Source: Sphaerochaeta halotolerans
GTDB taxonomy: Bacteria > Spirochaetota > Spirochaetia > Sphaerochaetales > Sphaerochaetaceae
Direction: 5' to 3'
Assembly: GCF_003429665.1 (NCBI RefSeq)
Contig: NZ_QUWK01000002.1
Span: 168,990-200,989 of the forward strand
DNA: 32,000 nt
The position numbers were made by a program, and so were the translations under genes. Below, piece after piece: positions 6,185 to 26,410 of this stretch. Within the stretch, counting starts at the first letter, position 1. Every line of letters begins with the position of its first letter. The notes under the pieces are model-generated. The model did not search any database. It was not told where the DNA came from and worked only from the letters and a program-made list of their open reading frames with translations.

Positions 6185-6257
<73 letters not shown>

Positions 6258-8146: not shown

Positions 8147-8271
8147 GATGTACAAAAGTAAACGGCAGGACAGTGATTCCTGATTCTACCAGGCTACTAG
8201 GCAACTTGTTAAGACGGCAATGGTCGTATGACGGGTTGCCTTTCTTGTGCCTTGAGCCTGGACTGTGGCCA
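8147..8271. repeat. 125-bp direct repeat, copy B (right flank of the AbiE cassette)
   Basis: 121 of 125 positions are identical to 6286-6410. Confidence 0.95.
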
Positions 8272-8763: not shown

Positions 8764-8799
8764 CGGGAACTCTGATTCTTTTCGACAATGATACAGCTT

Positions 8800-8828
8800 A
8801 ATGGCCGTACAACGGATTGCCTTTCATG
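8800..8828. repeat. Third, partial copy of the core of the 125-bp repeat
   Basis: AATGGCCGTACAACGGATTGCCTTTCATG matches 6358-6386 (AATGGTCGTATGACGGGTTGCCTTTCTTG) at 24 of 29 positions. Confidence 0.5.
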
Positions 8829-9238
8829 AGATTTGACAAGGAAACTAAGTCATCCTTTGAAATCGAGCACATACAATCCAACGCCTCCCGAACTGAAAAC
8901 TTTATTACATCACTGGAGCATGCCGAAGAGAAAGACTTCTGTAATAAAGAAAAGCTACTAGAACTTCAAAACCTTTCGAGGAAGGAAACGGACGAATCCA
9001 TCGATTCTTGATACACAACATCTTACCCCCGCGGGAAGTGGTGCCACGAGGACTCATGTTCCCGGTCTCGGCAGTCACGCTTAAGAATCCTCTTGATTAT
9101 GCTTTATCATTGGGGGTTTTTTTCCGATCATTGCTGCACTTGGTTGATTATCGACTGGATGAAGAGGTATCGGCAAGGGAAGAAGCAGTAATGGATGGTT
9201 ATGGAAACAGTGGTTCAGCCATGAACTGAAGGTGGAAG

Positions 9239-9470
9239 CACGTTGTCCTACCGTATTTCATAGCAAACATGGTGACTGGTTTACCTCGAAGAGGCCCTTG
9301 ATACACTCAAACCAACAGTGAAAAATTCTCTTTGTTATATCCTATCCTTGCAAACTCCTTTGTATGCTCTATCATAGATACGGTACACCAGTGAGGAGGG
9401 CCTATCTTTCATGCAGGATTCAAAGCGTTGCATCGGAGTGCTACTTGGTGAACTTTTTATCGATGAACCG
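9239..9470. repeat. Left copy of the ~230-bp imperfect direct repeat bounding the BREX island
   Basis: About 80% identical by eye to 26172-26410, with one indel of about 7 nt. It includes the same TTGCAA-16 nt-TATCAT promoter-like element (9348-9375), a GAGGAGGG RBS, and an ATGCAGGAT...CGTTGCATCGG start. Confidence 0.8.
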
Positions 9471-9545
9471 TTTAGAAAGAGATGGTCCATGGAAACTTTC
9501 TTTAATACCACAGGTTTCAGCGTAACAAAAAAAACGGGACCATGA
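9411..9545 (+). pseudogene. Truncated 5' remnant homologous to the sensor kinase gene at 26352
   Basis: The 44-codon ORF MQDSKRCIGVLLGELFIDEP... parallels MQDTPRCIGIFTAGLDDEYQ... of the 770-aa kinase. It then diverges and stops at 9543-9545. Confidence 0.65.
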
Positions 9546-9634
9546 AACCATTGGTATAACAGGTTCTGATCTCTCTTAATATCATCATATGTTGGATTAT
9601 CCGACTCTATTTAGCAATATTCGATAATTTATTC

Positions 9635-9663
9635 TTGATTTACATGTACTCTAAGCATAGAAT
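9635..9663 (+). promoter_or_regulatory. Candidate sigma70 promoter for the HTH gene / BREX operon
   Basis: TTGATT (9635-9640), a 17-nt spacer, then TAGAAT (9658-9663), 65 nt upstream of the HTH start in AT-rich DNA. Confidence 0.45.
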
Positions 9664-9680
9664 GAATGGTAAAAGGTGAT

Positions 9681-9708
9681 GCATAAGTATGCTTTGATAG
9701 TTATACTT
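9681..9708. promoter_or_regulatory. Palindromic candidate operator between the promoter and the HTH gene
   Basis: GCATA-AG-TATGC palindrome at 9681-9692. In addition, AAGTAT (9685-9690) and ATACTT (9703-9708) form an inverted repeat. Confidence 0.3.
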
Positions 9709-9727
9709 GTAGCAAGAGGGATTAAAA

Positions 9728-9907
9728 ATGGATGAGAGATGGCTAACTGTTGAGGACATTCGTCAGTATTTGAATGTCAGTAAAGAGACCATATACAGGT
9801 GGATTGAACACAACTCTATGCCCGGGCATAGAGTTGGCAGGCGATGGATGTTTAAGCAAAATGAAGTGGATACCTGGGTCCGCTCAGGTGGAGCATCCGA
9901 GAAATGA
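9728..9907 (+). CDS. Small helix-turn-helix protein, excisionase/AlpA (HTH_17) family
   Basis: 59-aa ORF, just under the track cutoff: MDERWLTVEDIRQYLNVSKETIYRWIEHNSMPGHRVGRRWMFKQNEVDTWVRSGGASEK. The pattern LT..e...yL.vS..TiYrW......P....G.rw.F...evd.W is the HTH_17 signature. GAGGG lies about 9 nt upstream. Confidence 0.75.
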   Translation: MDERWLTVEDIRQYLNVSKETIYRWIEHNSMPGHRVGRRWMFKQNEVDTWVRSGGASEK

Positions 9908-10038
9908 AAGGTATCAATACCTCAGGGCAAGAGCTGAACTCAGGAGGCGTTGCCTTCTTTCCGCCCCAAGGGACGGGGTATCTCACCTTGCTTTCCCTGC
10001 ACTCGCTCGGGAATGAGGTTGCTGAAAGGTAAAAGGGT

Positions 10039-10515
10039 ATGTCAATAACAGATTCTCAACTGCAAACAATTTTTAGCTCTCTTAAGACTGCAAAGGACAT
10101 GTATCATCAGCTCATTCTCGTTGTAGGTCCTTCAGGATCTGGGAAGACAGGAATTCTTAAGCAGATAGCTGAAAAAGAAAAAACCTCTGTTATCAATGTA
10201 AATCTAGAGATCTCCTCCCGTCTGCTTGAATTGACGAGAAAACAGAGGAAAACAAAACTTCAAACAATTTTTAATGATATAGTTGACCAAGCTCAGGCAC
10301 CTGTAATTCTCGATAATCTTGAGATTCTTTTTGATATAGAACTTGAGCAGGACCCGCTTCGCTTACTACAACATGCTTCAAGAAATACGCTCATTCTCGC
10401 TTCCTGGAATGGAATACTACAGGGCAAGAAACTGATATATGCAGAGATTACGCATCCTGAGTACAGGGTGTACGAAACATCGGATACGGTAACAATTGAT
10501 ATTGATAATGCATGA
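10039..10515 (+). CDS. brxF: BREX type 3 small P-loop ATPase BrxF
   Basis: 158-aa ORF with Walker [11 protein letters not shown] and a Walker-B-like VILDNLE. Its size and its position immediately upstream of brxC (ATGA stop/start overlap) match BrxF. Confidence 0.75.
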
Positions 10516-13500
10516 AATCACTTCAACAAGGAAAGGACATGAAATACGGCGACCTTATACAATTTGACCCAATAGAAACAGTTGTTCAATTGAGAGATGC
10601 TGATAAAAAGAACGCAGCAAAAACCTTGGTAGAAACGTATGTGATCTCAGATGAGATGGCCGAGAAACTGACTGAGATTGTCATCAAACAGCTGCAATTC
10701 GATACACCTGTTGATAACAAGGGGTTATTGGTAGTAGGTAACTATGGTACTGGTAAATCGCATTTAATGTCTGTGATCTCCAGTATTGCTGCTGATGCAT
10801 CACTCCTTGAAAGCTTGAGAAATGATGTTGTAAAAGAATCAGCTAAACAGATTGCTGGCAAGTTCAAGGTCTTGCGTACGGAAATCGGGGCTACAACCAT
10901 GTCACTCAGAGATATTATTGTAGCTGAATTGGAGGACTATCTTGAAAGGATAGATGTTGATTATTCGTTCCCCGCTGCAGATACAATCACAAATCATAAA
11001 CGGGCTTTTGAAGATCTGATGGAAGTATTCGCTGAAGTCTATCCTGACCAGGGACTCCTTCTTGTTGTAGATGAGCTCTTAGATTTCTTGAGAACCCGAA
11101 AAGACCATGATCTTGTTCTTGATCTGAATTTCCTACGGGAGATTGGTGAGGTTTGCAAAGATCTCAGATTCCGCTTTGTTGCCGGAGTCCAGGAAGCAAT
11201 ATTTGAAAGCCATCGTTTTGCCTTTGTTGCTGAGAGTATCCGCCGAGTACAGCAGCGATTCGATCAAATACTAATTGCCAGAAAAGATATCAAGTTCGTT
11301 GTAGCACAGCGACTTCTGAAGAAAACAGCAGCGCAGACTTCAAACATACGTGAACATCTCACCCCCTTTGCAAAATACTATAATGGATTGAATGAACGGA
11401 TGGATGAATTCGTGAATCTTTTCCCGGTCCATCCTGATTACATAGACACATTTGAAAGAATCACGGTAGTAGAAAAGCGAGAGATCCTTAAGACTTTGTC
11501 CAACAGCATGAAAGAGCTCCTGCTCACAGATGTTCCCAAGGATAAACCGGGGCTCATTGCTTTTGACAGCTATTGGAAAACCCTCATTCAGAATGCTGCG
11601 AATAGAGCGATCCCTGATATAAGGGAAGTTATGGACTGTAGCAATGTCCTGGAATCACGCATAGAAAATGCAATCACTCGAAAGCAATATAAACCTATGG
11701 CTATCAGATTAATCAATGCCTTATCTGTACACAGACTTACTACCGGTGATATCCATGCCCCGATGGGAGCAAGTGCAAGGGAATTACGTGACAGGCTCTG
11801 TCTCTTTGATCCAATGATCGAAGAATTGGGAAGTGATGAGCCAGAGAAAGATCTTGAAACACAGGTGGAGGTTGTCCTAAAAGAAATTCTTAAAACAGTC
11901 AGTGGGCAATTCATTTCTTTCAATTCCGACAACCGCCAGTACTACCTCGATCTGAAAAAGACGGAAGATTATGATGCAATCATCGAAAAGCGGGCAGAAA
12001 GCATGGGCGATTCCCAACTTGATCGTTTTTACTACGAAGCATTAAAGCAAGTTATGGAGTGTCAGGATGGCACCTATGTCTCCGGCTATAGAATCTGGCA
12101 GCATGAACTAGTCTGGCAAAGTCGAAAAGCTGCAAGAACCGGGTACCTCTTTTTTGGCGCTCCCAATGAGAGATCTACTGCTACTCCCACTCGTGATTTC
12201 TATATCTACTTTCTCCAGCCTTTTGATCCCCCACGCTTCCAGGATATGAAAAAAAGCGATGAGGTTTTCTTCAGACTTAAGCCAATTAAAGATCAAAGTG
12301 AAGAGTTCAATGTGAACCTTAAAAATTATGCTGCTGCTTTGGATCTTACAACTACCTCTTCCGGCCATGCGAAAGCAACGTATCAGGACAAGGCTAATGG
12401 TCATCTAAGAAAATTAGTCCAATGGCTCCAAAAGCATATGTCGGATGCTTTCACTGTCACTTATCAAGGACGAACAAAACCTATCCTGGAATGGGTAAAA
12501 GGGAAACCTATTCGTGACCTCTCAGGGATATCTCCGCAGGAGACCATCAACTTTAGGGACCATGTCAATACTATTGCAGGTTTGTGTCTGGAGCCACATT
12601 TTGAGAATCTTGCACCTGGGTATCCTGCTTTCTCAATTCTCATCACCGGCAGCAACAGGGCACAAGCAGCAAAGGATGCTCTCAGAGCAATTGCAGGACA
12701 GAACAGTACCAAACAGGCCAGTGCAGTATTAGATGCATTAGGATTACTTGATGGAGATAAGCTCGATCCTTACCATTCACCCTTCACAAAACACATCCTT
12801 GATATTGTAAAATCAAAAGGACATGGGCAAGTAATCAACAGGACAGAAATCTTCACTGATGACCACGGAGTGGAATTCATGTCTCCCTCTGCCTTCCGTC
12901 TTGAACCAGATTGGGTGGTAGTAATTATAGCAGCTCTTGTCTATTCAGGTGATCTCGTATTAGCAATCCCAGGTAAGAAGTTCGATGCGACAGCTGTCCA
13001 ACAGCTCGCTTCAGTTCAGATCGATGAACTTGTAAACTTCAAACACCTGGAACAGCCAAAGGAATGGAATCTTCCCGCATTGAAAGCATTGTTTGAACTA
13101 CTGGACCTTACTCCAGGTATGGCCCAATTGATAACCCAAGGAGACAGTGAACCAATTCAGGAAATGCAGAAGAAAGTGAGCAAACTGGTAGATCGAATTG
13201 TGTTAGCTCAGAAATCCTGCAGAGAAGGTATTGCTTTCTGGGATACCAATCTCCTCCAAGAAATGAACTATATGAACTTGCTAGCAGATCTCGATGCATC
13301 AAAGGATTTCGTCGAATCACTTCAGGTCTATTCATCACCTGGAAAACTCAAAAACTTCCGCTATAGTGTTGATGAGGTAAAGAGCTATAAGAAATCAATT
13401 GTCATGATTGAGGATATAGAGATTCTTAAAGAATTTGCTGTCTCCCAGAGCACCATCATATCTTGGCTTTCAACTGCTGAAGGGACACTGCCAAAAGAAC

Positions 13501-14279
13501 ATGTTTGGGTTGATCGGTTACATACTGCCAAGCAGGATATTATTGATCTGTTGCAGAAAACAACTCCACAGGATATCAAGAAGCAAGCTCAAACTATCGG
13601 TTTAGCCTTGAATGATCTAAAAAAAGAGTTCATTAAAACGTATTCTGATTTACACACACGCTTCCGGCTTGGAGTGAATGAATACAATCGAAAAGCAAAG
13701 CTGATGACTGATCAAAGACTGCAGACTCTCCAGAAACTTGCAGGTATCGATCTTATGCCGATCCAACAGCTCAAAGATTTCCAGAGCAGGTTGGCTGAAC
13801 TGAAAAGCTGTTCCAATCTGACAGAACAAGAGTTGGAATCATCACCTGTGTGCCGTCATTGTGGTTACCGCCCAATTAACGAGACGGGATCAGCTGCTAG
13901 CAAACACATGATTGATACTCTTGATGATGAACTTGACTCACTCGTTAAGGGCTGGACTAAAACCCTTATAGGGAATCTGGAAGATCCTATTACTCAATCA
14001 AACCTGAATCTCTTAAAGCTTGAGGAAAGAAAAAGCATCGAGGAGTTCATCAACTCTGGAGAACTACCGACACCGGTTGATTCAGATTTCGTTCATTCTT
14101 TAAAGGAAGTATTGTCTGGTCTTATCAAGGTTGCTGTAAAATCCCAGGATCTGCAGAAAGCCCTTCAACTGGACCAAGGCCCAACTACTCCAATTGAGAT
14201 GAAGAAGAGGTTTGAAGAGTATATAGATAAGCTTACCCAGGGTAAAGATCAGGCCAAAGTCCGCATAGTAGTAGAATAA
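10512..14279 (+). CDS. brxC: BREX ATPase BrxC/PglY (large P-loop protein, DUF6079-like)
   Basis: 1255-aa ORF with Walker [10 protein letters not shown] and Walker [12 protein letters not shown]. Size and position between brxF and pglXI fit BrxC/PglY. An alternative start at 10539 ([18 protein letters not shown]) follows AAGGAAAGG. Confidence 0.85.
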
Positions 14280-14297
14280 ATCACAAAGGATATATAC

Positions 14298-17114
14298 ATG
14301 AGCAAACAGGGAAACCTTTTTAACTCACAGATAGTCCCGGGCAAACCGGGAAGTGGCAATCTTTTCGATGAAGAGTTTGTAATAGATAAAGGACCAGTAG
14401 TGTGTTTAGGGCTTGAATTCGATAATGATGAAGCAAGACGAACATATTTCACTGAAGAGTTAAGAAAAAAACTTAATGACCCAGAATTCAGAAACATAGA
14501 AGGCTTCCCCATAGGAGAAGACGAAGATATCCTCAAGCTAAGTGACCCACCTTACTACACAGCCTGTCCCAATCCATGGATACCTGACTTCATAGAGCAG
14601 TGGGAGAAAGAAAAACCAGAGAAGCCAGATGATTTTCATTACCATCGAGAACCCTTTGCTGCAGATGTGAGCGAAGGGAAAAATGATCCGATCTATAATG
14701 CTCACTCCTATCATACAAAGGTTCCACATAAGGCTGTTATGCGATATATCCTTCATTACACTGATCCTGGTGATATTGTATTTGATGGATTTGCAGGGAC
14801 TGGTATGACAGGAGTCGCTGCTCAGATGTGTGGCGATAGAGAAGCCATACTATCATTAGGGTATCAAGTAAAAAACGATGGGACCATTCTTCAGGAGGAA
14901 GAGGATGAGAACGGTAAGAAAACCTGGAAGCCTTTCTCAAAGCTGGGTGCTCGAAAAGCAGTTCTCAATGACCTTTCTCCTGCTGCAACCTTTATTGCGT
15001 ATAACTATAACACCCCAGTTGATGTAAAGGAATTCGAACGAGAAGCGAAACGAATCCTTGCTGAAGTCGAGGAAGAATGCGGCTGGATGTACGAGACCTC
15101 ACATACTGATGGCCGAAAAGGCAGAATCAACTATACGGTGTGGTCTGATGTCTTCACCTGCCCTGAATGTGCCGGTGAAGTTGTATTCTGGGAAGCTGCT
15201 GTAGACAAACAAGCTGGAAAAGTACAGGACGAATTCCCGTGCCCACATTGCAAAGCTGAACTGACAAAAAGAAAAATGGACCGTGCCTGGACAACAAAAT
15301 ATGATTCAGCTCTAAATGAATCTGTAAGACAAGCAAAGCAGGTTCCTGTACTGATCAATTATACTGTAGACGGTACAAAGAGGAGGTTTGAAAAAACTCC
15401 AGATGAGCATGATTTAAAGCTTATTAATACGATTGAAAACAGTGAGATTCCGTATTGGTTTCCAACCAACATCATTATTGATGGCAAAGAAATTGGCCGT
15501 TTAAAATCTCTAGAGATAAAAAATATCCATCAAATACTACCCAAAAGGAGTAATTGGATTCTTAGTTCTTTTCAAGATAAATGTAGCAGTAATTCAAAAT
15601 TATTTATTATAGCCACTTCCGCACTTCATAATTTGAGCTGGATGTATCGCTGGCGAGCAAATGGTAAAGGTGGAACTACCTCTGGCACTTATTATATATG
15701 CGCAACACCTCAAGAAAACAGTCCGTTTAATCAGCTTAGAGCTAAACTTGACGATATGCTTAAAGCTATTAACTATCGGATCAACACAGTTTCTACTCAA
15801 GATTCTAGCAATCTAAGAATGCTAGATGAATCAATCGACTACCTTTTTTTTGATCCCCCATTTGGGGCAAATTTGATGTACTCTGAATTAAGTTACATTT
15901 GGGAATCATGGTTGAAGGTTTCTACAAATAACAAGTCGGAAGCTATTGAAAATCCTGTTCAAGGTAAAGGACCAGATGAATATCGGCAATTGATGACAGC
16001 TTGTTTCAAAGAAGCTTATAGAGTGCTAAAGCCAGGTCGCTGGATGACTGTTGAATTTTCAAACACGAAAGCATCTGTATGGAATAGCATTCAAGCTGCC
16101 ATAAATGAAGCTGGATTTATCATTGCAAATGTATCAGCTTTGGACAAGAAGCAAGGCAGTTTCAAGGCAGTTACAACTCCAACCGCAGTAAAACAAGACC
16201 TGGTAATCTCAGCATACAAACCGAATGGAGGCTTTGAAGAGCGCTTTCTGAAAGAAGCTCGGACAGAAGAAGGTGTATGGGATTTCATTCATACGCATCT
16301 CCAGTATTTACCGGTCACCAAACTTCAGGGAACAGACCTTATAGTCATACCGGAAAGAGATCCAAGAATCCTGTATGATCAGGTAATTACTTATTATGTG
16401 AGAAAAGGGTATGGTGTTCCCATTGATAGTCAGGAATTCCAAGTCGGCTTATCTCAGAGGTTCTCTGAACGTGATGGTATGTATTTCTTGCCTGAACAGG
16501 TTGCTGAGTATGATCAGAAGAAATTGCGCCTTGGAAACAAGACAGTATTACAATCACTCTTTATTTCCGATGAAGCTTCTGCTATTGAGTGGCTAAGAAG
16601 TTTGCTAAGGGAAAAACCTCAAAGTTATCAAGATATAAATCCACAGTTTATGAAAGAAATTAGTGGCTGGAGTAAAAATGAAACTGGACTAGAATTGTCT
16701 ATACTTTTAGAACAGAACTTCCTTGTATATGATGGAGCTGGTTCTGTTCCTGAGCAGATTCATAGTTATTTATCCACTAACTGGAAAGATTTAAGAAATC
16801 TCTCAAAGCAAGATCCAACCTTAATTGCTAAAGCAAAAGGACGTTGGTATGTACCTGATCCAAGCAAAGCTGGAGATTTAGAAAAATTACGAGAAAGAGC
16901 CTTACTCAAGGAATTTGAACAGTACAAACAATATAATAAGAAACTAAAAGTGTTCAGACTTGAGGCTGTTAGAACTGGCTTTAAGAGAGCGTGGCAAGAA
17001 AGAGATTATCAAACTATCGTTTCTATAGCTGAAAAAATCCCTTCTAGTGTTCTAGAAGAAGATCCAAAGTTGCTGATGTGGTATGATCAAGCAATGACAA
17101 GATTGGGAGATTAA
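14298..17114 (+). CDS. pglX: BREX type 3 DNA methyltransferase PglXI (N6/N4 methylase family)
   Basis: 938-aa ORF with SAM-binding motif I VFDGFAGTGMTG. A CxxC...CxxC zinc ribbon is present (CPECAGEV...CPHCKAEL). The catalytic motif IV FFDPPFG has its D at 15852-15854. An N-terminal SDPPYYTACPNPW box is also present. Confidence 0.85.
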   Translation: MSKQGNLFNSQIVPGKPGSGNLFDEEFVIDKGPVVCLGLEFDNDEARRTYFTEELRKKLNDPEFRNIEGFPIGEDEDILKLSDPPYYTACPNPWIPDFIEQWEKEKPEKPDDFHYHREPFAADVSEGKNDPIYNAHSYHTKVPHKAVMRYILHYTDPGDIVFDGFAGTGMTGVAAQMCGDREAILSLGYQVKNDGTILQEEEDENGKKTWKPFSKLGARKAVLNDLSPAATFIAYNYNTPVDVKEFEREAKRILAEVEEECGWMYETSHTDGRKGRINYTVWSDVFTCPECAGEVVFWEAAVDKQAGKVQDEFPCPHCKAELTKRKMDRAWTTKYDSALNESVRQAKQVPVLINYTVDGTKRRFEKTPDEHDLKLINTIENSEIPYWFPTNIIIDGKEIGRLKSLEIKNIHQILPKRSNWILSSFQDKCSSNSKLFIIATSALHNLSWMYRWRANGKGGTTSGTYYICATPQENSPFNQLRAKLDDMLKAINYRINTVSTQDSSNLRMLDESIDYLFFDPPFGANLMYSELSYIWESWLKVSTNNKSEAIENPVQGKGPDEYRQLMTACFKEAYRVLKPGRWMTVEFSNTKASVWNSIQAAINEAGFIIANVSALDKKQGSFKAVTTPTAVKQDLVISAYKPNGGFEERFLKEARTEEGVWDFIHTHLQYLPVTKLQGTDLIVIPERDPRILYDQVITYYVRKGYGVPIDSQEFQVGLSQRFSERDGMYFLPEQVAEYDQKKLRLGNKTVLQSLFISDEASAIEWLRSLLREKPQSYQDINPQFMKEISGWSKNETGLELSILLEQNFLVYDGAGSVPEQIHSYLSTNWKDLRNLSKQDPTLIAKAKGRWYVPDPSKAGDLEKLRERALLKEFEQYKQYNKKLKVFRLEAVRTGFKRAWQERDYQTIVSIAEKIPSSVLEEDPKLLMWYDQAMTRLGD

Positions 17115-17120
17115 AACCTT

Positions 17121-17966
17121 ATGGTAATTACATTTTTAAAAAAGATAGCTTGGTACTACCCAAAATCTGTCTTTGCAGCATTGGGGTTATTTTGGTTAGT
17201 CATCGAACCAATTATTGGACTGACCGGTAATACTATAAATCTATCATATTGGCAATTATTTGGTTTGTCTGCGTCTATTGGAGTTATTTGGTTCATACTC
17301 GACGGAATATGGTTTTCTGGCTACCTAAAAAATAGAATAGAGATAACAAGTAACGGATTCGACACCAAAATAATAATTAAGTTTAGCGATCTATTTAATG
17401 AAGAAGGCTGGAAAGCAATACCAGTAAATGATTTTTTTGATTCAATTGTTGATGACAGACATATTTCGTCGAAAAGCCTCCATGGAATTCTCATTAAGAG
17501 ATACTGGGGAGGAAATACTAATGACTGGGATCAACAAGTCGAAGAACAGTTAAGTGATCTCACAGTTACCGATGAAACAAGACCCAAGGGAAAGACAAAA
17601 CGATATAAGATTGGTACGGCAGCAGTTTTAAGAAAAGATGGTGATAGGTTTATTTGTGTAGCATCCACGCATACCAATATCTCGAATTTAGAAACCAAAG
17701 CTAACACTGTTGATCTACACCATGCGATTTGTGGAGTCCTTGAGACATCCCGATCATGTTGTAGCAATGAAACATTATCAATTCCCTTATTTGGGTCAGG
17801 TCTTTCACGGATTGGGCTAAAGAATAATATTTTGGTTGATCACATTTTAACTGCTATTTTTGAAGAATCAAAAAAGAGCAAAGTTACCGACGTAATTCAA
17901 ATTATTTTACCTAAAAACAAAAGAGATGATATCAACCTTTTATCAATAAAAAGAGACTGGAGTTAA
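17121..17966 (+). CDS. thsA: Two-TM protein with a C-terminal Macro-like domain (candidate type II Thoeris ThsA effector)
   Basis: 281-aa ORF with two N-terminal hydrophobic helices (SVFAALGLFWLVIEPIIGL and WQLFGLSASIGVIWFILDGIWF). A soluble domain follows, with Macro-like landmarks WKAIPVNDFFDS and LSIPLFGSGLSRIG. It starts 6 nt after the pglXI stop. The domain call is by eye only. Confidence 0.55.
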   Translation: MVITFLKKIAWYYPKSVFAALGLFWLVIEPIIGLTGNTINLSYWQLFGLSASIGVIWFILDGIWFSGYLKNRIEITSNGFDTKIIIKFSDLFNEEGWKAIPVNDFFDSIVDDRHISSKSLHGILIKRYWGGNTNDWDQQVEEQLSDLTVTDETRPKGKTKRYKIGTAAVLRKDGDRFICVASTHTNISNLETKANTVDLHHAICGVLETSRSCCSNETLSIPLFGSGLSRIGLKNNILVDHILTAIFEESKKSKVTDVIQIILPKNKRDDINLLSIKRDWS

Positions 17967-17969
17967 ATT

Positions 17970-18551
17970 ATGGCATATAGAAGCGGTACATATATTGCAT
18001 TTGATGGGCTAGGACAAGAAAATCCTACATTATCAGATTTCAAGTATTACTCTACAATTCAAGCATGGGCTAGAAACACAGAGATCGATTTTAAATATGT
18101 TGATAGTCATGCAAAAACTAGTGCAGTAAGGGATACTAGTCTGAGGACAACTCTTCAATTAAGAATTCGAGAGCGTTTATCAAACTCAAAAAATGTAGTG
18201 GTAATACTAAGCAGTGATACCAGAAAAACAGGTAGTATGCTTTCTTATGAAATTGAGCAAGCTGTAGATACATATTTTCTACCATTAATCATTGCATATG
18301 TAGATTATAGTGCAATCGCAGATCCATCTCAGCTCTCATCGTACTGGCCAAATGCACTTAGTACACGAATCTCGAAAGGAACTGCAAAGGCTATTCATAT
18401 CCCATTCCTGAAGAATGCCATCTTGGATGCAATTAGCCAATTTTCATTTAATAATCTCCCGAAAACCAGTTTGAATTATTATTGCCGAGATGCTCATATG
18501 CAATTTGGTTGTATATCGGTAGCATCCCCTTTCATAAACACAATGAAATAA
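17970..18551 (+). CDS. thsB: TIR-like protein, DUF1863/ThsB family (candidate Thoeris ThsB)
   Basis: 193-aa ORF. The pattern TYIAFDG...DFKYYSTIQAW..N..IDFKYVDSH...LRIRERLSNSKNVVVILSSDT....SYEIEQA matches the ThsB/Tir TIR-like domain. It includes the conserved Glu (E94, 18249-18251) in the [RS]YEI context. The gap after the preceding gene is 3 nt. Confidence 0.7.
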   Translation: MAYRSGTYIAFDGLGQENPTLSDFKYYSTIQAWARNTEIDFKYVDSHAKTSAVRDTSLRTTLQLRIRERLSNSKNVVVILSSDTRKTGSMLSYEIEQAVDTYFLPLIIAYVDYSAIADPSQLSSYWPNALSTRISKGTAKAIHIPFLKNAILDAISQFSFNNLPKTSLNYYCRDAHMQFGCISVASPFINTMK

Positions 18552-18583
18552 CCAGTTAATAATTATTGTGAAGGAGTTAAATA

Positions 18584-20362
18584 ATGACAGAACAGGAAAT
18601 AATAGAACTCCTCAACCAACACGAATGGAAAGATGTTGAATTCAAAGAAGCAAAGACAGCTGTTCCCAAGAATGCTTACGAAACGGTATCTGCCTTTGCA
18701 AACACAGAAGGAGGGTATCTCGTTTTTGGTGTAAAAAAGAATGGTTCTGAGTATGAGCTTGTTGGGGTAAAAGATGTTGATAAAGTTCAAAATGACTTCA
18801 TTACAACGCTAAGACAAAAGAACAAAATTAGTTGCATCATTGAAGTTACAGAGACTATAAAAACTGTGGATGGAAGAGATCTAATTGTATTCTATATCTC
18901 AGAAGTTAACCGACACAAGAAACCTGTATATTTGGATGGAAATATCAAAAGAAGTTATATTCGGAAGGGTGCATGTGATGTCAAATGTTCTGATGTAGAA
19001 TTAAAGCGACTCCTTAATGATGCCTCTACCGACCGCTATGACGGCACTACAATAGACCACTTTGACATAACCAAGTGTTTTAGCAGTAAAGATATTACAT
19101 GGTATCGACGCCAGTATGAAGGAAGGATTGGAAATCGTAGCTATGCAGAATTAGACGATGAAGAGTTTCTCTTTCAGTTCGGATTGATCAAAGAAACTCC
19201 ATCTGGGAGAAAGCCTACCATTGCTTCTATTTTGCTGTTTGGTCAGGATGGCTACCTAAGAGATGTACTTCCACGACCTGTCATAGATTGTCAGCGTTTT
19301 CTATATAACTCAACTTCAACAGATGAAGGAAGATGGCATGATAGAGTTGTCTGTGATTATAATCTCATTCAAACATGGACATCGGTATTGGAATGGTACT
19401 ATCGATTTGCAGAAATCCCTTTCACAGTAGATCCAATGACAATGCAGCGAAAAGACCAACCAGTAGATTTTATTGCATTCAGAGAATCCATCGTAAATAT
19501 TTTAATCCATCAAGACTATTCGGATCAAACTCGAAAACCTGTTATACAACACTTTACGGATCTAACTCGATTTTGGAATCCTGGGGATGCATTTGCTTCT
19601 GTCGAAGAATTGCTTGAACCGGGAGAGAAAGAAGTTAGGAACCCACTCATTGTTACAGCCTTTCGGAGAATTGGTTTTAGCGAGAATGCTGGGTGGGGAT
19701 TGCGTGATGTATGTATCTCTTGGCGAAAATTAGGTCGAATGCCTCCTGTAATTATCAATGATAAGGAAAAAAAGGCATTTGAACTTAATCTTAAGCAGGA
19801 GATACTTCTTTCCGAAGATCAAATAGCATTTCAAAAGACAATTGGTGTGCAACTTTCGCAAGATGAAGCAGAAGTATTTGCTTATGCATGTAAAAACCTT
19901 TCAATATTTTCTATACATGAGATTAAGACGGTTATTAATAAACCTGTGTCTACATGCGTTGAATTAGCGGGGCATCTGGTAGATCAACAGTTATTGGTTA
20001 GTAATTCAGATAAATCATTCAGCCTAGCTCCAAAGATGAAACAAAGGTTTCTCGCTACACTTAATTCCAAGGCCCATGACGAGGCCCATGACGAGGCCCA
20101 TGATGAGACCCATGACGAACTAAACGAAACTGAAACAATAATCCTTAAGAGTTGTATATCTGCATCCAGTTCAGAAGAGTTGTTGAAAGTTTTAGGATAT
20201 AAAAGCAGAACTGGAAATTTTAAGTCAGCCTTAGGTAATCTCCTAAGATTACACTTAATAAAAATGACAATTCCTGAAAGTCCGAGGAGTAAATCACAGA
20301 AGTATGTTCTTTCTGAGAAAGGGTTTGATTTATTAAAAAAATTGGAGAAATTCAGTGATTAG
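18584..20362 (+). CDS. AlbA_2 (Schlafen-like) + HATPase_c_4 + wHTH protein (RecG-like putative DNA-binding/ATP-binding regulator)
   Basis: 592-aa ORF. The N-terminus EWKDVEFKEAK....VSAFANTEGGYLVFGV is an AlbA_2 domain. The middle ESIVNILIHQDYS...RNPLIVTAFRRIGFSENAGWGL resembles HATPase_c_4. The C-terminal LGYKSRTGNFKSALGNLL...SKSQKYVLSEKG tail is typical of this family. GAAGGAG RBS. Confidence 0.8.
   Translation: MTEQEIIELLNQHEWKDVEFKEAKTAVPKNAYETVSAFANTEGGYLVFGVKKNGSEYELVGVKDVDKVQNDFITTLRQKNKISCIIEVTETIKTVDGRDLIVFYISEVNRHKKPVYLDGNIKRSYIRKGACDVKCSDVELKRLLNDASTDRYDGTTIDHFDITKCFSSKDITWYRRQYEGRIGNRSYAELDDEEFLFQFGLIKETPSGRKPTIASILLFGQDGYLRDVLPRPVIDCQRFLYNSTSTDEGRWHDRVVCDYNLIQTWTSVLEWYYRFAEIPFTVDPMTMQRKDQPVDFIAFRESIVNILIHQDYSDQTRKPVIQHFTDLTRFWNPGDAFASVEELLEPGEKEVRNPLIVTAFRRIGFSENAGWGLRDVCISWRKLGRMPPVIINDKEKKAFELNLKQEILLSEDQIAFQKTIGVQLSQDEAEVFAYACKNLSIFSIHEIKTVINKPVSTCVELAGHLVDQQLLVSNSDKSFSLAPKMKQRFLATLNSKAHDEAHDEAHDETHDELNETETIILKSCISASSSEELLKVLGYKSRTGNFKSALGNLLRLHLIKMTIPESPRSKSQKYVLSEKGFDLLKKLEKFSD
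20072..20119 (+). repeat. 12-bp in-frame tandem repeat x4 encoding (A/T)HDE
   Basis: GCCCATGACGAG, GCCCATGACGAG, GCCCATGATGAG, ACCCATGACGAA occur back to back. They translate to AHDEAHDEAHDETHDE inside the 592-aa ORF. Confidence 0.95.
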
Positions 20363-20478
20363 TTTAATTCAAACTATCAAGCAAAGTAAAGAATTGGATC
20401 TATACCTCACATATTTTCTCAATGGACAAGTTTGCGCCCGTCCAAATGCTTCTTTAATAATTACAAGCCGGAGGATGG

Positions 20479-23349
20479 ATGAATAATTGGAAATTTAGCA
20501 CACACTATTCATCCATATGTATGGTCTTAGATGAACAATATCTTTGGGGCCAAATAATCTGTCGCATTTGGCTACCATCACAACATGCAATTGTACGTGT
20601 ATCGGAGGCAGATCTAAAACCTCTACATTCAGAGAGAATCAGTAAAACTGAAGAGTTTAGAATCTCATATATTGCTACAGCAGCAAAAATAGCAGAACTA
20701 TTAGAGAATACCTCTGAGGATAATGACAGCACAGTTTTATTAGCTCCTATGGAATCAAATGTAATTCCTCTTCCCCATCAGCTTCATGCTTTGTCACGAG
20801 CTATTTCAGGTGATAGAGTACGGTACCTTCTTGCTGATGAAGTCGGCCTTGGTAAAACTATTGAAGCTGGACTAATTATGCAGGAGCTTAAGCTTCGTGG
20901 TTTGGTACGGCGAACACTAGTTGTTGCTCCTAAAAGCCTGGCTATGCAGTGGGTAGCAGAAATGGAAACCCACTTCAATGAGAATTTCGCATTGATAAAT
21001 CCAGGAGATCTTGATGCTCTGGAACGACTAGAATGCTCAACCTCCTATATCGACGGAGCAGAGAGCTCTTCAGATTATAACCCCTGGTTGAAATTCAATC
21101 ATGCGGTCGTAACATTGGATGCAGTCAAACCAGTGAGGCGTCGAAAAGGCTGGTCTGAAGAAAAAGTTCATCAGTACAATAAAAACAGATATGAAAGACT
21201 GCTCCAAGGCCAATGGGATCTTATTATTGTTGATGAGTCTCACCGTATTGGAGGTAGTACTGATCAGGTCTCCCGTTACAAACTTGGCCAGGGATTAGCA
21301 GAAGCAGCCACTTATCTTTTGCTCCTTTCAGCAACTCCTCATCAAGGGAAGTCGGATGCCTTCCACCGGTTAATCAGTCTGCTTGATCCAATGTCTTTTC
21401 CCGATCAAGAAAGTGTTACCCGAGAGAAAGTCTCTGAGTTCGTTATCAGAACAGAGAAGAGAAAAGCGCTGACCGCTGAAGGTGAACCTCTATTCAAACC
21501 TCGAACAACACAGACAATGGGAATCGATCTGAGTAGAAACCCCTCCCAAGTTGCTTTATATGAGGCTGTCACTGATTATGTTCGATTAGGCTATAATCGT
21601 GCAATCAAAGACAAGAAGCCTCATATAGGCTTTCTTATGGTGTTACTGCAGCGAATTGTTACCTCGAGTTCCCATGCCATCAGGACAACTCTGGAAAGAC
21701 GTTTGAATGTGCTTGAGAATCTTAAATCTTCTCTCCATATTCCTACTTCTGATGAGTTAGAGGAACTAGTAGATCTCGATGGTCAGATGCAATTGGATTT
21801 CTTAATAGAGGTAGATGAAAAGGGCAGACATAATGAGATAGAAGAAGTTTCTTTCTTGCTTGGTCTGGCAAAAAAGGCTGAGCAAACGGGACCCGATATC
21901 AAGACAGATATCCTCATGGACCAGATATTCAGACTTCAAGGAGAAGAGAATAACGATCAATTGAAAATTATCATCTTTACGGAGTTTGTTGCTACCCAAT
22001 CCATGCTGCAAACTTTTCTTGAAGAGAGGAATTTTCCGTGTTCAATCATCAATGGCTCCATGAGTATGGAGGAACGAAGAAAAGCTCAAAGAGATTTTAG
22101 AGAAAAGAATAGGATACTCATTGCCACTGATGCGGGAGGAGAAGGTCTAAACCTGCAGTTTTGCCATGTAGTTATCAATTATGACCTACCCTGGAATCCT
22201 ATGCGTATAGAACAGAGAATCGGCAGGGTAGATCGTATCGGACAGTCGAAGATCGTAAGAGCTATTAATTTCGTGTATGAAGACTCTGTGGAAAGTAGGG
22301 TTCGTGAAGTTTTAGAGAGGAAATTATCGATCATCTTTGATGAAATGGGGATCGACAAATCCAATGATATCCTTGATACATCTCTTTCTGGTGAGCTGGT
22401 AGAGAAGATGATGACTCACATCATCATGGAAGAGGCTGACCCTGAAAAAGAAATAGAGCGGACTGTGAGAACAATCCAATTTGATTTGGCACAGGAACGC
22501 AATAAATGTGCTGTGTACAAGATATCAGAAGACCCCGAACCAGCTGCTGCTGTGAAGGTCAAGAATCATCCACTTCCCTTCTGGGTGGAACGAATGGTGA
22601 TCAATTACGTAAAAATGAATGAACTGTCCGTAGAGAAAGATCTACTGGGCTGGAACTTCGTATGGCCGGATGGCGAAAAAGTATCTGGTGCAATATTTCA
22701 CTCTCCTGATTCCACCTCAGATTCATTGAGATTGTCTTTGGAAAACCCAAAGGTCCGTGGTCTTATTCTCAACCTGCCACAACTGTTCTCTGGTCAGCCA
22801 GTACCATTAGTAGCGTTAGAAGGAGTTCCAGAAACAGTTAATGGCTATTGGGGACTATTTGAGATTACACTCACCATTCACAGTAACGAAACCAATCAAA
22901 TACGACTTCCCGCAAAAAGGAAAGGGTATCAATGCGTGTTTGTCAGCAACAAGGGTAAACTATTCATACCTACTGCAAGATTCATCTGGGATCAGTTATT
23001 AACACTGGAACCTCAGATACTTCGAATGCTATCACCAGAGGAGTCTGTTCATTGCTTTGAAACCCTTTATGAAGCAGCTGCAACTGCTGGAGAGGAGCTT
23101 TTTAACCAGCTTAAGAATTCTCATGAAAAAGCAATTGAGAGAGAAAATCAGCGAGGAATGACAGCTTTTACTTTTCGGAGAAGATCGATACATAAAGTAG
23201 GTTTACCGGAAGTGAGAAATTACCGATTGCATAGACTGGAAGAAGATAAGCTTCAATGGCAGAGGGAACTAAAAAGCGCTGCCCAAGTGATCCCTGATAT
23301 TCGTCCTTTATTAATCTTTTCTATTGGGGAGGTTCCTGGAGATGAGTAG
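20479..23349 (+). CDS. brxHII: BREX type 3 helicase BrxHII (SNF2/RapA-like, COG0553-type)
   Basis: 956-aa ORF with helicase motif I LLADEVGLGKT, motif II LIIVDESHR, motif III LLLSATP, and C-terminal motifs ATDAGGEGLNLQ and QRIGRVDRIGQ. GGAGGA RBS. It sits upstream of pglZ with an 8-nt overlap. Confidence 0.85.
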   Translation: MNNWKFSTHYSSICMVLDEQYLWGQIICRIWLPSQHAIVRVSEADLKPLHSERISKTEEFRISYIATAAKIAELLENTSEDNDSTVLLAPMESNVIPLPHQLHALSRAISGDRVRYLLADEVGLGKTIEAGLIMQELKLRGLVRRTLVVAPKSLAMQWVAEMETHFNENFALINPGDLDALERLECSTSYIDGAESSSDYNPWLKFNHAVVTLDAVKPVRRRKGWSEEKVHQYNKNRYERLLQGQWDLIIVDESHRIGGSTDQVSRYKLGQGLAEAATYLLLLSATPHQGKSDAFHRLISLLDPMSFPDQESVTREKVSEFVIRTEKRKALTAEGEPLFKPRTTQTMGIDLSRNPSQVALYEAVTDYVRLGYNRAIKDKKPHIGFLMVLLQRIVTSSSHAIRTTLERRLNVLENLKSSLHIPTSDELEELVDLDGQMQLDFLIEVDEKGRHNEIEEVSFLLGLAKKAEQTGPDIKTDILMDQIFRLQGEENNDQLKIIIFTEFVATQSMLQTFLEERNFPCSIINGSMSMEERRKAQRDFREKNRILIATDAGGEGLNLQFCHVVINYDLPWNPMRIEQRIGRVDRIGQSKIVRAINFVYEDSVESRVREVLERKLSIIFDEMGIDKSNDILDTSLSGELVEKMMTHIIMEEADPEKEIERTVRTIQFDLAQERNKCAVYKISEDPEPAAAVKVKNHPLPFWVERMVINYVKMNELSVEKDLLGWNFVWPDGEKVSGAIFHSPDSTSDSLRLSLENPKVRGLILNLPQLFSGQPVPLVALEGVPETVNGYWGLFEITLTIHSNETNQIRLPAKRKGYQCVFVSNKGKLFIPTARFIWDQLLTLEPQILRMLSPEESVHCFETLYEAAATAGEELFNQLKNSHEKAIERENQRGMTAFTFRRRSIHKVGLPEVRNYRLHRLEEDKLQWQRELKSAAQVIPDIRPLLIFSIGEVPGDE

Positions 23350-25339
23350 CTGGAGAGATAATATCCTAAAGGAGTTCATTCCAAATATTTCTAAACTCAC
23401 ATTAGTAGCAGACCCAGATAGTCTACTATCAGAAGAAAAACTCTCGTCTGAGTTGCGAAAAAGAGGCTTTGATCTTATAGAATTCGATGATTCCATAGAA
23501 TTCCGCTATGCCTATGAATCTAAATATCGATCTATCTGGGATCAAGGATTACATACAGACTTGGTTGTTATCTTGAGAGTTCAGAACTCAGAGCTATCAA
23601 ATCTCCCTTATGATTTGCTTCAAGCAGGAAGAATTCTCTCTTTCAGTTTGGGAGCTATCTTCCCAAACTTCAGTTATCCAATTCTGGATTGTTTGGAACA
23701 GCATGTATTTGATGCTCTATTCAGAGCTCAAGAAGACACCTCCCCTGGGATTATGGGGGATAATGGCACTAAGGATTTCATACTGCGACATATATACAGT
23801 ATTGCTCCTGAACTGATTAATACCGAAGTAGATCTTCTCCGATCACTACTAAGATTGCATTACGGTACAATAGAAATTCCAGAACCATTAGCTGATCGAT
23901 TAGTCTCCCTCCTCCAGAATAATGTAACGTTCAAAGAATGGCCACTTGAAAGCATTGTCAAAGATTCCAAAGTTTTCTATGCCTTCATCCAGGAGCGATG
24001 GTCAATTTTCTTGGACAGCTACGATCAAGTCGAGCAGGTTATGGATTCGCCTTCCCCTTACGGGTTGCAGGTTTCAGGGCCTGCCCTTCTTCCTTTTGAA
24101 CACCAGGATATCAGAATTTATATCGACAATCTGTTCGTTGAAGGAAAGCTATCGCCTGTTGAATATTCAAAACACAGTGTTCCAGCCAATTCCTGGATGT
24201 CCTGTGGGATAAAGACCGCTTCAGGTGATACAGAAGCTATACGAATAAATCGCCTATTTTCTATCGTAACTTCAAATTTGCCGAATGCCCAATCTCGTTA
24301 CAATGAATGGCTGTCAATTGCCCTGCAATGGGGAGAACTCTCAGTATTAATTCATAACAACTCTGACGTAACGCTTCTTGAAAGATTTACATCACTGCAG
24401 ACCGAGATTAATGGTATTTTTGCTGGATGGTTAACTGAATACTATGCAAGTCTTATAAATCTACCACCATCCACCCCTGTGATGGTTCATCATATTCCTC
24501 GGTTTCTCTCAAGGCAACTAGAAAGTAGTGATACGAAGAAAATAGCCTTATTAGTAATCGATGGTATGGCGTTTGATCAATGGATAACAGTAAAACACTC
24601 ACTACAATCACAGGATCCAACACTGCTCTTCCGTGACTCGGCTGTTTTTGCTTGGATACCAACATTGACCTCTGTCTCAAGACAAGCAATCTTTGCCGGG
24701 AAACCACCCATATATTTCCCTAATTCAATATACAGTACAAACAGTGAAGAGAAATTATGGAAGCAATTCTGGCAAAGTCAGGGACTTCAGAAACAAGAGA
24801 TTGCCTATAGAAGAAGTTTGGGTGATGAAAATATTGAAGACTGCCTAGAGGCCGTCATCAACCCGTATAAAACAACTGTTGCAGGTATGGTCATAGATAC
24901 AGTTGATAAGATCATGCATGGTATGCAACTTGGGGCTCCCGGCATGCATAACCAGATTGCACAATGGTGTAAAACGGGATATTTGAAGAAAACCTTAGAC
25001 TACCTTGATGAGCTCGGCTATGAGGTATGGCTGACTTCTGATCACGGTAATATTGAAGCTGTTGGGACCGGAAGAATTGCCGAAGGCTCATTGGTAGATA
25101 GTCGAGGTGAGAGGGTCAGGATATATCCTAATGTAGAATTAAGAAACCAAATTGCAGCTTCTTCAGTAGGCACTCGACTTTGGGCCCCTATAGGCTTGCC
25201 AGAAGATTTCTTTCCATTACTTGCAGATAATAACACTGCTTTCATCAAAGAAGGTGCAACTACAGTTGCCCATGGAGGGATCTCCATAGAAGAAGTCATT
25301 GTTCCACTTATTAAAATTGAAAGGATACCCCATAGATGA
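23342..25339 (+). CDS. pglZ: BREX alkaline-phosphatase-superfamily protein PglZ
   Basis: PglZ-domain landmarks: LLVIDGMAFDQW, PTLTSVSRQAIFAG, LTSDHGN. I prefer the ATG at 23342, which has GGGGAGG about 10 nt upstream and overlaps the brxHII stop. The track ORF starts in the same frame at 23324. Confidence 0.85.
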   Translation: MSSWRDNILKEFIPNISKLTLVADPDSLLSEEKLSSELRKRGFDLIEFDDSIEFRYAYESKYRSIWDQGLHTDLVVILRVQNSELSNLPYDLLQAGRILSFSLGAIFPNFSYPILDCLEQHVFDALFRAQEDTSPGIMGDNGTKDFILRHIYSIAPELINTEVDLLRSLLRLHYGTIEIPEPLADRLVSLLQNNVTFKEWPLESIVKDSKVFYAFIQERWSIFLDSYDQVEQVMDSPSPYGLQVSGPALLPFEHQDIRIYIDNLFVEGKLSPVEYSKHSVPANSWMSCGIKTASGDTEAIRINRLFSIVTSNLPNAQSRYNEWLSIALQWGELSVLIHNNSDVTLLERFTSLQTEINGIFAGWLTEYYASLINLPPSTPVMVHHIPRFLSRQLESSDTKKIALLVIDGMAFDQWITVKHSLQSQDPTLLFRDSAVFAWIPTLTSVSRQAIFAGKPPIYFPNSIYSTNSEEKLWKQFWQSQGLQKQEIAYRRSLGDENIEDCLEAVINPYKTTVAGMVIDTVDKIMHGMQLGAPGMHNQIAQWCKTGYLKKTLDYLDELGYEVWLTSDHGNIEAVGTGRIAEGSLVDSRGERVRIYPNVELRNQIAASSVGTRLWAPIGLPEDFFPLLADNNTAFIKEGATTVAHGGISIEEVIVPLIKIERIPHR

Positions 25340-26091
25340 ACAACAGGTATAACAAATTAGGTATTAAACAAACCATCCAGAAACACTGGATGGACTACAC
25401 ACTAAATATGCTGCTTGCAGGCTTGTCAGAAAAGGAGATTCGTTCAGAACTGGATACCTATCTATCAACCCAGAAACAAAGCGGTGGCATCGGAGAACGT
25501 GGTCAAAAAACCTATGGGATGGCAATCAGTATTCTATCATCCTGGATCTCTCCAGAGAAAGAATTGATTCCTTTCCGGGATAAAGCATTGAACTTGGCAA
25601 AAGTTATTCCTGATAGTGAATGGCTCCCTCTTCATTGGGCTGTGATTTCAGCTTCTTATCCTTTCTGGTTCAATACTGCAAAACAGACTGGTAGACTTTT
25701 TAATCTTCAGGAGAAAATAACCAAAGCTCAGGTTTTCAATAGATTAAAAGAATGTTATGGAGACAGGGAAACCGTTTCAAGAAATGCTCGTTATACTGTA
25801 CGATCTTTTGTTGCTTGGGGAATTTTACAAGACACTGAAACCAAGGGAGTCTATACCAAAGCAAACCCCTTCATGATCGATAATCCTCAACAAGCGATAC
25901 TGCTATTTGAAGCATACTTGCATACCCTTCCGGAAGCAAAAGCTGAATTAGGTTCGATCATCCATAACCCCGGATTCTTTCCCTTCCAAATGCAAAGCAT
26001 GACAGGTGAGTACATTGCACAGAACAGTGATTTTTTGGAGGTTTCGAGATACAGCCTAGATAACGAGATTCTCAAGTTGAAGAACAATTAA
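25336..26091 (+). CDS. brxA: Probable BrxA (DUF1819-like) terminal gene of type 3 BREX
   Basis: 251-aa ORF with a 4-nt overlap with pglZ. It is helical, with a BrxA-like N-terminal pattern (LLAGLSEKEIRSEL..YL). The call rests mainly on its position as the last gene in the canonical type 3 order. Confidence 0.55.
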   Translation: MNNRYNKLGIKQTIQKHWMDYTLNMLLAGLSEKEIRSELDTYLSTQKQSGGIGERGQKTYGMAISILSSWISPEKELIPFRDKALNLAKVIPDSEWLPLHWAVISASYPFWFNTAKQTGRLFNLQEKITKAQVFNRLKECYGDRETVSRNARYTVRSFVAWGILQDTETKGVYTKANPFMIDNPQQAILLFEAYLHTLPEAKAELGSIIHNPGFFPFQMQSMTGEYIAQNSDFLEVSRYSLDNEILKLKNN

Positions 26092-26171
26092 AAGCAACTT
26101 AGCAAATTGCGATCTTGGGTATACGTGATCAATTGTACTCTACATGAGGAATTTGTTTGTTTCTTCATAAC

Positions 26172-26410
26172 CACGATGTCCTACCGTATTTCATGGCAAC
26201 CATGGGTACCAGATTTACCATGAAGAGGCCCATGATACAATCCAACTAACAGAGAGAAATCATCTTTGTTATATTTTCACCCCTATCCTTGCAAACTCCT
26301 TTGTATGGTCTATCATGAAAAAGGTACACCAATGAGGAGGGATCATTTTTCATGCAGGATACACCCCGTTGCATCGGTATATTCACCGCAGGTTTGGACG
26401 ATGAATATCA
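26172..26410. repeat. Right copy of the ~230-bp imperfect direct repeat bounding the BREX island
   Basis: Homologous to 9239-9470. It carries the promoter-like element, the RBS and the first ~20 codons of the intact kinase gene. Confidence 0.8.
26289..26316 (+). promoter_or_regulatory. Candidate promoter of the sensor kinase operon
   Basis: TTGCAA (26289-26294), a 16-nt spacer, then TATCAT (26311-26316), 35 nt upstream of the ATG. The same element is conserved at 9348-9375. Confidence 0.4.

Follow-up and report, generated by a model that had tools for sequence, protein, structure and literature searches.

A diverged type II Thoeris gene pair in the variable pglXI-brxHII slot of a type 3 BREX operon from Sphaerochaeta halotolerans

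We analysed a window of 32,000 nucleotides from Sphaerochaeta halotolerans (contig NZ_QUWK01000002.1, positions 168,990 to 200,989 of the forward strand), in which two adjacent genes, thsA and thsB, lie inside a type 3 bacteriophage exclusion (BREX) operon. All coordinates below are those of the window unless another locus is named. Both genes are on the plus strand: thsA (17121-17966) encodes 281 amino acids (aa) with two predicted N-terminal transmembrane (TM) helices and a C-terminal ThsA-type Macro domain, the effector of type II Thoeris, and thsB (17970-18551) encodes a predicted TIR-like signal synthase of 193 aa. The original prediction, made from the bare sequence, had placed the two open reading frames (ORFs) 3 nt apart at these positions and on this strand, had quoted short motifs from each, and had read them by eye as a two-TM Macro effector and its ThsB-type TIR partner. 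Coordinates, strand and motifs are all correct, and the Pfam, PADLOC, and AlphaFold plus Foldseek runs it proposed returned significant Macro and TIR-like matches.

ThsA matches the Pfam family ThsA_Macro (PF20016) with an E-value of 3.7e-39 over 182 of the 183 profile positions, and six PADLOC ThsA models match it nearly full length (best 2.2e-52). When its sequence was searched against the PDB, the significant matches were ThsA Macro domains only (EcThsA 8v6q/8v6r, PcThsA 8v6s, 9uuz, and BaThsA 8r66). An AlphaFold model built with 46 homologs (mean predicted local distance difference test score, pLDDT, of 87; predicted template modelling score, pTM, of 0.78) has helices at residues 2-35 and 43-65 followed by an alpha/beta domain. 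The best eight Foldseek matches of this model are all ThsA Macro crystal structures (template modelling scores of 0.80-0.85 normalised to the target, root-mean-square deviation 2.5-3.6 A), and generic macro domains rank well behind them. The Pfam envelope of the Macro domain covers aa 84-263 (17370-17909, plus strand), and the two quoted motifs, WKAIPVNDFFDS (aa 97-108) and LSIPLFGSGLSRIG (aa 219-232), lie at the expected places. To call TM helices, we took segments whose Kyte-Doolittle mean over 19 residues was 1.6 or more and set them beside the AlphaFold helices. Two segments, at about aa 15-36 and 46-65, passed this value and coincide with the two modelled helices. Predicted TM helix 1 (17166-17228, plus strand, about aa 16-36) reaches a mean of up to 2.04 and predicted TM helix 2 (17256-17315, plus strand, about aa 46-65) a mean of 1.73. 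The hydrophobic character of the N-terminus is kept across the 46 homologs, among which G62 and G67 are invariant, and the lysine-rich N-terminus together with the basic stretch after the second helix would fit an N-in, C-in topology. Each predicted helix also contains an acidic residue conserved in the 46-member clade: E29 (17205-17207) in a WLxxE motif of the first, and D61 (17301-17303) in the conserved D61-G62 (IDG) motif at the end of the second.

ThsB matches ThsB_TIR (PF08937) at 7.6e-15 and, over its full length, the PADLOC ThsB model at 4.5e-65; its PDB sequence matches are 3hyn, EcThsB2 (8v6t), and the ThsB entry 9uv0. Its structural model (mean pLDDT 78) retrieves 3hyn and EcThsB2 at template modelling scores of 0.73-0.78, and then, weakly, DNPH1 and nucleoside deoxyribosyltransferases, the same Foldseek pattern that Shi et al. 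described for the TM-Macro-specific class of ThsB (PMC11204291). The motifs YIAFDG, YYSTIQAW, and VVVILSSDT are present, as is a DSHxKT..VRD motif common to 9uv0, 3hyn, and EcThsB2, and no segment of the protein exceeds a Kyte-Doolittle mean of 1.6. Y8, Y93, and E94 are invariant among 44 homologs. In the phmmer alignment, Y8 (codon 17991-17993) and E94 (codon 18249-18251) pair with Y8 and E89 of EcThsB2, which form the active site of that enzyme (PMC11204291). ThsBs with this active-site tyrosine have been found only alongside TM-Macro ThsA, in a class that includes BaThsB, which produces histidine-ADP-ribose (His-ADPR; PMC11204291). The glutamate singled out by the original prediction, E94 in a SYEI context, is therefore the probable catalytic residue, and its codon was correctly located; the tyrosine that marks the class, however, is Y8 and not the Y93 of SYEI. 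The Bacillus cereus type I ThsB (6lhy) was dropped as a reference for the catalytic context because of its weak Foldseek match (E 0.3), and EcThsB2 was taken instead.

To examine the ligand pocket of the Macro domain, we took the contacts reported for ThsA Macro domains (bioRxiv 10.1101/2024.01.03.573942; PMC11204291) and mapped them with phmmer alignments to 8r66 and 8v6q, that is, by sequence alignment alone. Mapped in this way, the predicted signal-binding pocket appears mostly conserved, with two clade-specific substitutions. D90 would correspond to BaThsA D100 and EcThsA D83 at the adenine N6, L120 to EcThsA L113 in adenine stacking, S226-G227, within a GSG loop that appears wholly retained (G225-G227), to EcThsA S217-G218 at the proximal ribose and phosphate, R230 to BaThsA R240 at the histidine carboxylate, and K267 to EcThsA K262 at the proximal ribose. 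At the position of BaThsA N133 and EcThsA N114, which contact the distal ribose, the alignment places His121, invariant in all 46 clade members; at that of BaThsA Y277 and EcThsA H259, which stack on adenine, it places Pro264, found in at least 90% of the clade and sitting just beyond the Pfam envelope. These two changes raise the alternative of a diverged signalling variant, in which the logic of type II Thoeris is kept and a remodelled pocket reads an ADP-ribose (ADPR) conjugate other than His-ADPR. The distance of the pair from the solved ThsA and ThsB proteins (24-31% identity) fits such a variant, as do the several effectors and signals with which related TIR clusters are paired (bioRxiv 10.64898/2025.12.03.692087) and the binding of ADPR as well as imidazole adenine dinucleotide (IAD) by EcThsA and PcThsA. 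Nevertheless, the arginine for the histidine carboxylate appears to be kept as R230, ThsB agrees with 9uv0, 3hyn, and EcThsB2 in its Tyr-Glu active site and its DSHxKT..VRD motif, a ribose hydroxyl can still form a hydrogen bond with a histidine side chain, and the N114A mutant of EcThsA still binds ADPR (PMC11204291). We regard a signal other than His-ADPR as possible but doubtful. The His121/Pro264 pocket is in either case a natural variant for work on the ligand specificity of ThsA Macro domains.

The gene pair is surrounded by a complete type 3 BREX system, as the original prediction had it when it placed the pair inside a BREX operon. PADLOC recovers all six genes of the canonical list (PMC10799925) with E-values from 6e-54 to 0, every one on the plus strand: brxF (10039-10515; 6.4e-54), brxC (10512-14279; 0), pglXI (14298-17114; 0), brxHII (20479-23349; BrxH model, 0), pglZ (23324-25339; 8.5e-295), and brxA (25336-26091; 8e-86). 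Upstream of them stands a small HTH_17 gene (9728-9907, plus strand; PF12728, 4.4e-16), which also precedes BrxF in three related loci (L135, L137, and L139). Between thsB and brxHII there is one further gene (18584-20362, plus strand, 592 aa), which combines a Schlafen/AlbA_2 domain, HATPase_c_4, and a Fic-like C-terminal winged helix-turn-helix (wHTH) domain (PF04326, 4.4e-17; PF13749, 1.9e-9; PF21247, 2e-7). This Schlafen-HATPase-wHTH architecture is a BREX accessory known from at least 1017 taxa (PMC12839542), and related BREX loci have orthologues of the gene, mostly at the BrxC-PglXI junction. The gene also holds an acidic His-Asp-Glu-Ala repeat, AHDEAHDEAHDETHDE. The intergenic gaps are 6 nt (pglXI-thsA), 3 nt (thsA-thsB), 32 nt (thsB-Schlafen gene), and 116 nt (Schlafen gene-brxHII), and thsA, thsB, and the Schlafen gene are preceded by the Shine-Dalgarno-like sequences GGGAGA, GGAG, and AAGGAG. 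No terminator-like site was found on the plus strand between 11802 and 24067, in a scan of 9000-26800 whose overall promoter and terminator counts equal the shuffled expectation (43 against 41 and 14 against 13.4). Given the gaps of 6, 3, and 32 nt and the lack of a terminator-like site in that interval, co-transcription of thsAB with BREX is plausible.

We then asked what occupies the same position elsewhere, using 79 loci of the closest PglXI relatives (59-79% identity) in species-representative genomes. In 56 of the 66 loci that have the next core gene, the junction between PglXI and BrxHII or PglZ contains 0.78-6.4 kb of extra DNA, while in the other 10 the core genes are contiguous; the BrxC-PglXI junction is likewise variable in these loci. 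The 118 cargo ORFs come predominantly from OLD-family ABC ATPase systems (AriA/PARIS, HEC-01, Gabija, and Ppl-like), with 33 members matching AAA_21, and more rarely encode Schlafen proteins, RNA ligase, UvrD helicases, or AIPR. Among all the loci compared in this work, nine have an otherwise complete type 3 BREX (L016, L023, L030, L044, L056, L057, L077, L135, and L136) in which no BrxHII helicase is detectable between PglXI, or the cargo, and PglZ. ThsAB is rare at BREX loci: none of the 79 carries ThsA or ThsB, which, taken by itself, would suggest a one-off insertion in our window. This idea was overturned by a metagenome scan anchored on the ThsA alignment, which yielded 53 loci and was complemented with three look-ups of homologs on long contigs. 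ThsB is adjacent in 47 of the 53 ThsA-relative loci. Among the loci whose context could be assessed, 15 of the 21 with ThsA identity of at least 50% lie in type 3 BREX downstream of PglXI (13 distinct ThsA sequences), against none of the 12 with ThsA identity below 50%. The closest relatives of ThsA (99% and 89% identical) are BREX-embedded too. Where the pair is embedded, the distance from PglXI to the start of ThsA is usually 13-23 nt, and that from ThsB to the start of BrxHII is 10-39 nt. The arrangement extends to Archaea, since the complete genome of Methanosarcina sp. WWM596 (CP009503.1) carries thsAB in the PglXI-BrxHII slot. That locus (L134, 3346892-3367716) contains two tandem 936-aa PglXI-like genes, ThsA, ThsB, an AAA_21 plus DUF4276 pair, and BrxHII. 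ThsAB can share the slot with other cargo: in L087, L135, and L134 the companion is an AAA_21 pair, in our window it is the Schlafen gene. The original prediction had called the placement of the pair within another defence operon unusual. It is not: cargo is the rule at this junction (56 of 66 loci), most close ThsA relatives occupy it (15 of 21), and defence genes embedded in BREX have already been published (PMC10799925; PMC12839542; bioRxiv 10.1101/2024.01.29.577857), the last of these as a concept for defence systems. Lying between the core genes pglXI and brxHII, on the same strand as both and at a junction that varies among relatives, thsAB is an embedded system in that sense.

Outside BREX, some more distant relatives are found in other modification-based operons with SNF2 helicases. 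Three such loci have a ThsA identity of 40-44%. In L102:960-9822 and L108:7014-16866, ThsAB stands between a DrmD-like SNF2 helicase and a type III methyltransferase with its restriction enzyme (the methyltransferase was scanned in L102 only), and the third, L116:435-6522, resembles these two by ORF layout alone, with a protein of about 956 aa, ThsAB, and a 594-aa protein. In L082 the order is C5-methyltransferase (C5-MTase), a gene of unknown function, a helicase/restriction endonuclease-like gene, ThsAB, a DrmD-like helicase, and a TmtA-like gene, and the ORF layouts of L084 and L085 match it. The remaining non-BREX relatives adjoin RHS toxins, phage capsid or primase genes, integrases, or AAA_21 genes. 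The recurrence of ThsAB in the type 3 BREX slot, in Bacteria and in Methanosarcina, and in other SNF2-helicase operons is a modest new observation, as is the His121/Pro264 pocket.

ThsAB is a mobile, exchangeable cassette that favours the pglXI-brxHII slot and not a co-evolving part of BREX. Five results lead to this reading: a tree, a correlation test, a mosaic locus, base composition, and a replacement. In a rough neighbor-joining tree nearly all BREX-embedded pairs fall in one large clade, and the copies in C5-MTase/DrmD contexts are nested within it. ThsAB identity does not follow that of the C-terminal region of the PglXI next to it (Mantel r=0.19, p=0.22, 11 loci); for example, L081 and L137 share 90% of ThsAB and 66% of PglXI. 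On the strength of the Mantel result, we rejected the long-term co-inheritance of ThsAB as a fixed BREX component. The comparison of our window with L139 reveals a mosaic, with synonymous divergence (dS) of 0.02 for ThsA, 0.36 for ThsB, 0.33 for BrxC, and 1.84 for PglXI. The guanine-plus-cytosine (GC) content of ThsA, ThsB, and the Schlafen gene is 0.35-0.38 (ThsAB 0.35-0.36), against 0.40-0.43 for most BREX core genes and 0.39 for brxF, and ThsAB occurs without the Schlafen gene in other relatives. Finally, the closest BREX relative, L002 (Sphaerochaeta metagenome-assembled genome JAVERP010000040.1, BrxC 92% identical), has a 920-aa Ppl gene (12829-15591) in place of ThsAB. Homology between L002 and our window is lost precisely at the stop codon of PglXI and picks up again within thsB, about 50 nt from its 3' end. 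Directly upstream of its Schlafen gene, L002 contains a 16-codon ORF tail (L002:15745-15795) that reads QFFSLSILSPFTNLRK up to the stop codon, where the thsB tail of our window reads QFGCISVASPFINTMK. A terminal F-x-N-T-x-K before the stop is also present in ThsB loci without a downstream Schlafen gene, so this tail is native to ThsB, and the most likely reading is that L002 retains part of a thsB that Ppl replaced. We hold this with moderate confidence only, as the peptide match by itself has E=0.14 in a 3-kb search. As an observation apart from the cassette, PglXI (14298-17114 compared with L139:6302-9145) is only 76% identical at the amino acid level, far more diverged than its neighbours BrxC (95%) and ThsA (99%), which suggests recombination or a specificity-domain swap within this methyltransferase.

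The low GC content and the apparent remnant in L002, which indicates that such cassettes decay or get replaced, could also be taken to mean that the pair in our window is a passenger in decay or already inactive, the residue of an earlier insertion that now has no function. We consider this extremely improbable. Both ORFs are full length relative to their homologs, all catalytic and most binding residues appear intact, and a 99%-identical ThsA recurs in independent samples. Moreover, the ratios of nonsynonymous to synonymous substitution (dN/dS), calculated against two relatives, are about 0.20-0.22 for ThsA and 0.10-0.18 for ThsB, and at such values (0.1-0.2) purifying selection acts on both genes.

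The neighbourhood also bears on whether ThsAB is wired to BREX as a functionally coupled backup, for instance one set off once the first line has been knocked out by anti-BREX or anti-restriction proteins of phage, in the manner of PrrC/EcoprrI or of PARIS and Ocr, or one dependent on the neighbouring SNF2 helicase. The clade is biased to modification-based operons next to such a helicase, with the 15 of 21 close relatives lying immediately upstream of BrxHII in type 3 BREX and distant ones between a DrmD-like helicase and type III restriction-modification (R-M), or between a C5-MTase module and a DrmD-like helicase. The spacing to flanking genes is very tight (10-39 nt), and the backup concept has been published for other embedded systems. 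However, ThsAB and PglXI show no co-divergence, unrelated systems can take the place of ThsAB at the same site, and ThsAB is kept in BREX loci without BrxHII (L135, L136). Some ThsAB relatives lie in prophage, integrase, or RHS contexts with neither BREX nor R-M, BxaP works without BREX from the same slot (PMC10799925), and characterised systems of type II Thoeris function by themselves when placed in heterologous hosts. Functional coupling is, in our view, unlikely. Decidedly unlikely, too, is the more elaborate proposal that the His121/Pro264 clade constitutes a dedicated lineage inside methylation-based operons next to SNF2 helicases (type 3 BREX, DrmD-like plus type III R-M), functionally wired to them, for example by firing when anti-restriction proteins of phage inhibit the surrounding system, and possibly using a signal that differs slightly from His-ADPR.

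All in all, we are confident that thsA and thsB form a working type II Thoeris module, an exchangeable cassette that rides as cargo in the variable slot between pglXI and brxHII in a type 3 BREX operon. The module probably acts independently of BREX and is probably transcribed together with it, serving as a second layer, abortive or growth-arresting, after a methylation-based first line. By analogy with characterised homologs, phage infection would activate ThsB, whose TIR domain, with Tyr8 and Glu94, would cleave nicotinamide adenine dinucleotide (NAD+) and link the resulting ADP-ribose with histidine or with an imidazole base like it. ThsA would bind this conjugate through its Macro domain in the cytoplasm, and ligand-dependent oligomerisation of the Macro domains could then cluster the two TM helices, compromising membrane integrity or cell growth and so stopping phage propagation. 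Several points weigh against this account. The two proteins are only 24-31% identical to characterised ThsA and ThsB, from which the presumed signal, phage trigger, and effector action are all borrowed, and the TM helices of ThsA are predictions from hydropathy and AlphaFold. In the alignment, His121 and Pro264 depart from all four solved ThsA Macro structures, so the ligand may not be exactly His-ADPR. Even for known members the outcome of the effector is unsettled, because one type II system, according to a recent preprint, arrests growth without showing markers of cell death. Co-transcription with BREX, for its part, is not demonstrated, as the promoter and terminator scans did no better than shuffled sequence.

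Beyond the operon, the window contains several other features. A tRNA-Met gene (6185-6257, plus strand), the only match in an Rfam scan of the whole window, is followed at the edge of the defence island by an AbiEii toxin/DUF6088 pair on the minus strand (6486-8091); in L137, too, there is an AbiEii gene upstream of the BREX locus. The stretch of about 1.5 kb from the AbiE pair to the HTH_17 gene (8200-9700) has no ORF longer than 80 aa and no Rfam match, and the ORF fragments at 8817-9229 have no Pfam match. Downstream of the operon lie a two-component system, composed of a histidine kinase with a periplasmic-binding domain (26352-28664) and a LuxR-type response regulator (28668-29324), and then a 450-aa ORF (29513-30865) that has no Pfam match.

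Compared with known systems, ThsAB is a diverged yet recognisable type II Thoeris, which existing PADLOC models already match nearly full length. It resembles the type II Thoeris of Bacillus amyloliquefaciens Y2 (8r66) in having two genes, an effector with TM helices and a ThsA-type Macro domain, and a single Tyr-Glu ThsB. BaThsA superimposes on our ThsA with a Foldseek template modelling score of 0.85, and its D100, R240, and GSG loop would be D90, R230, and G225-G227 here. The identity is about 27%, however, and N133, Y277, and Q135 of BaThsA align with His121, Pro264, and Ile123; in addition, the B. amyloliquefaciens pair is stand-alone and signals through His-ADPR, whereas ours is BREX-embedded and known from sequence. 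The TM-Macro Thoeris of Escherichia coli CFT073 supplies the best PDB sequence and structure matches of ThsA (EcThsA, 8v6q/8v6r) and the best characterised match of ThsB (EcThsB2, 8v6t). In the alignments, Y8/E89 of EcThsB2 would correspond to Y8/E94, and L113, S217-G218, and K262 of EcThsA to L120, S226-G227, and K267. It differs in having two ThsB genes where we found one, in N114/H259 at the positions of His121/Pro264, and in an identity of 24-26%. A literature search that left out most subscription journals and supplementary tables returned no paper in which Thoeris or TIR genes are named as cargo embedded in BREX. The embedded pair is a natural test case for distinguishing mere co-transfer and co-transcription from functional layering behind BREX. 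In slot, orientation, and swappability, it is like the published BREX-embedded accessories, such as BxaP between PglXI and BrxHII, BrxU, PARIS, OLD-ABC, and the Schlafen-HATPase-wHTH gene; unlike them, the cargo in our window is a TIR-signalling Thoeris pair.

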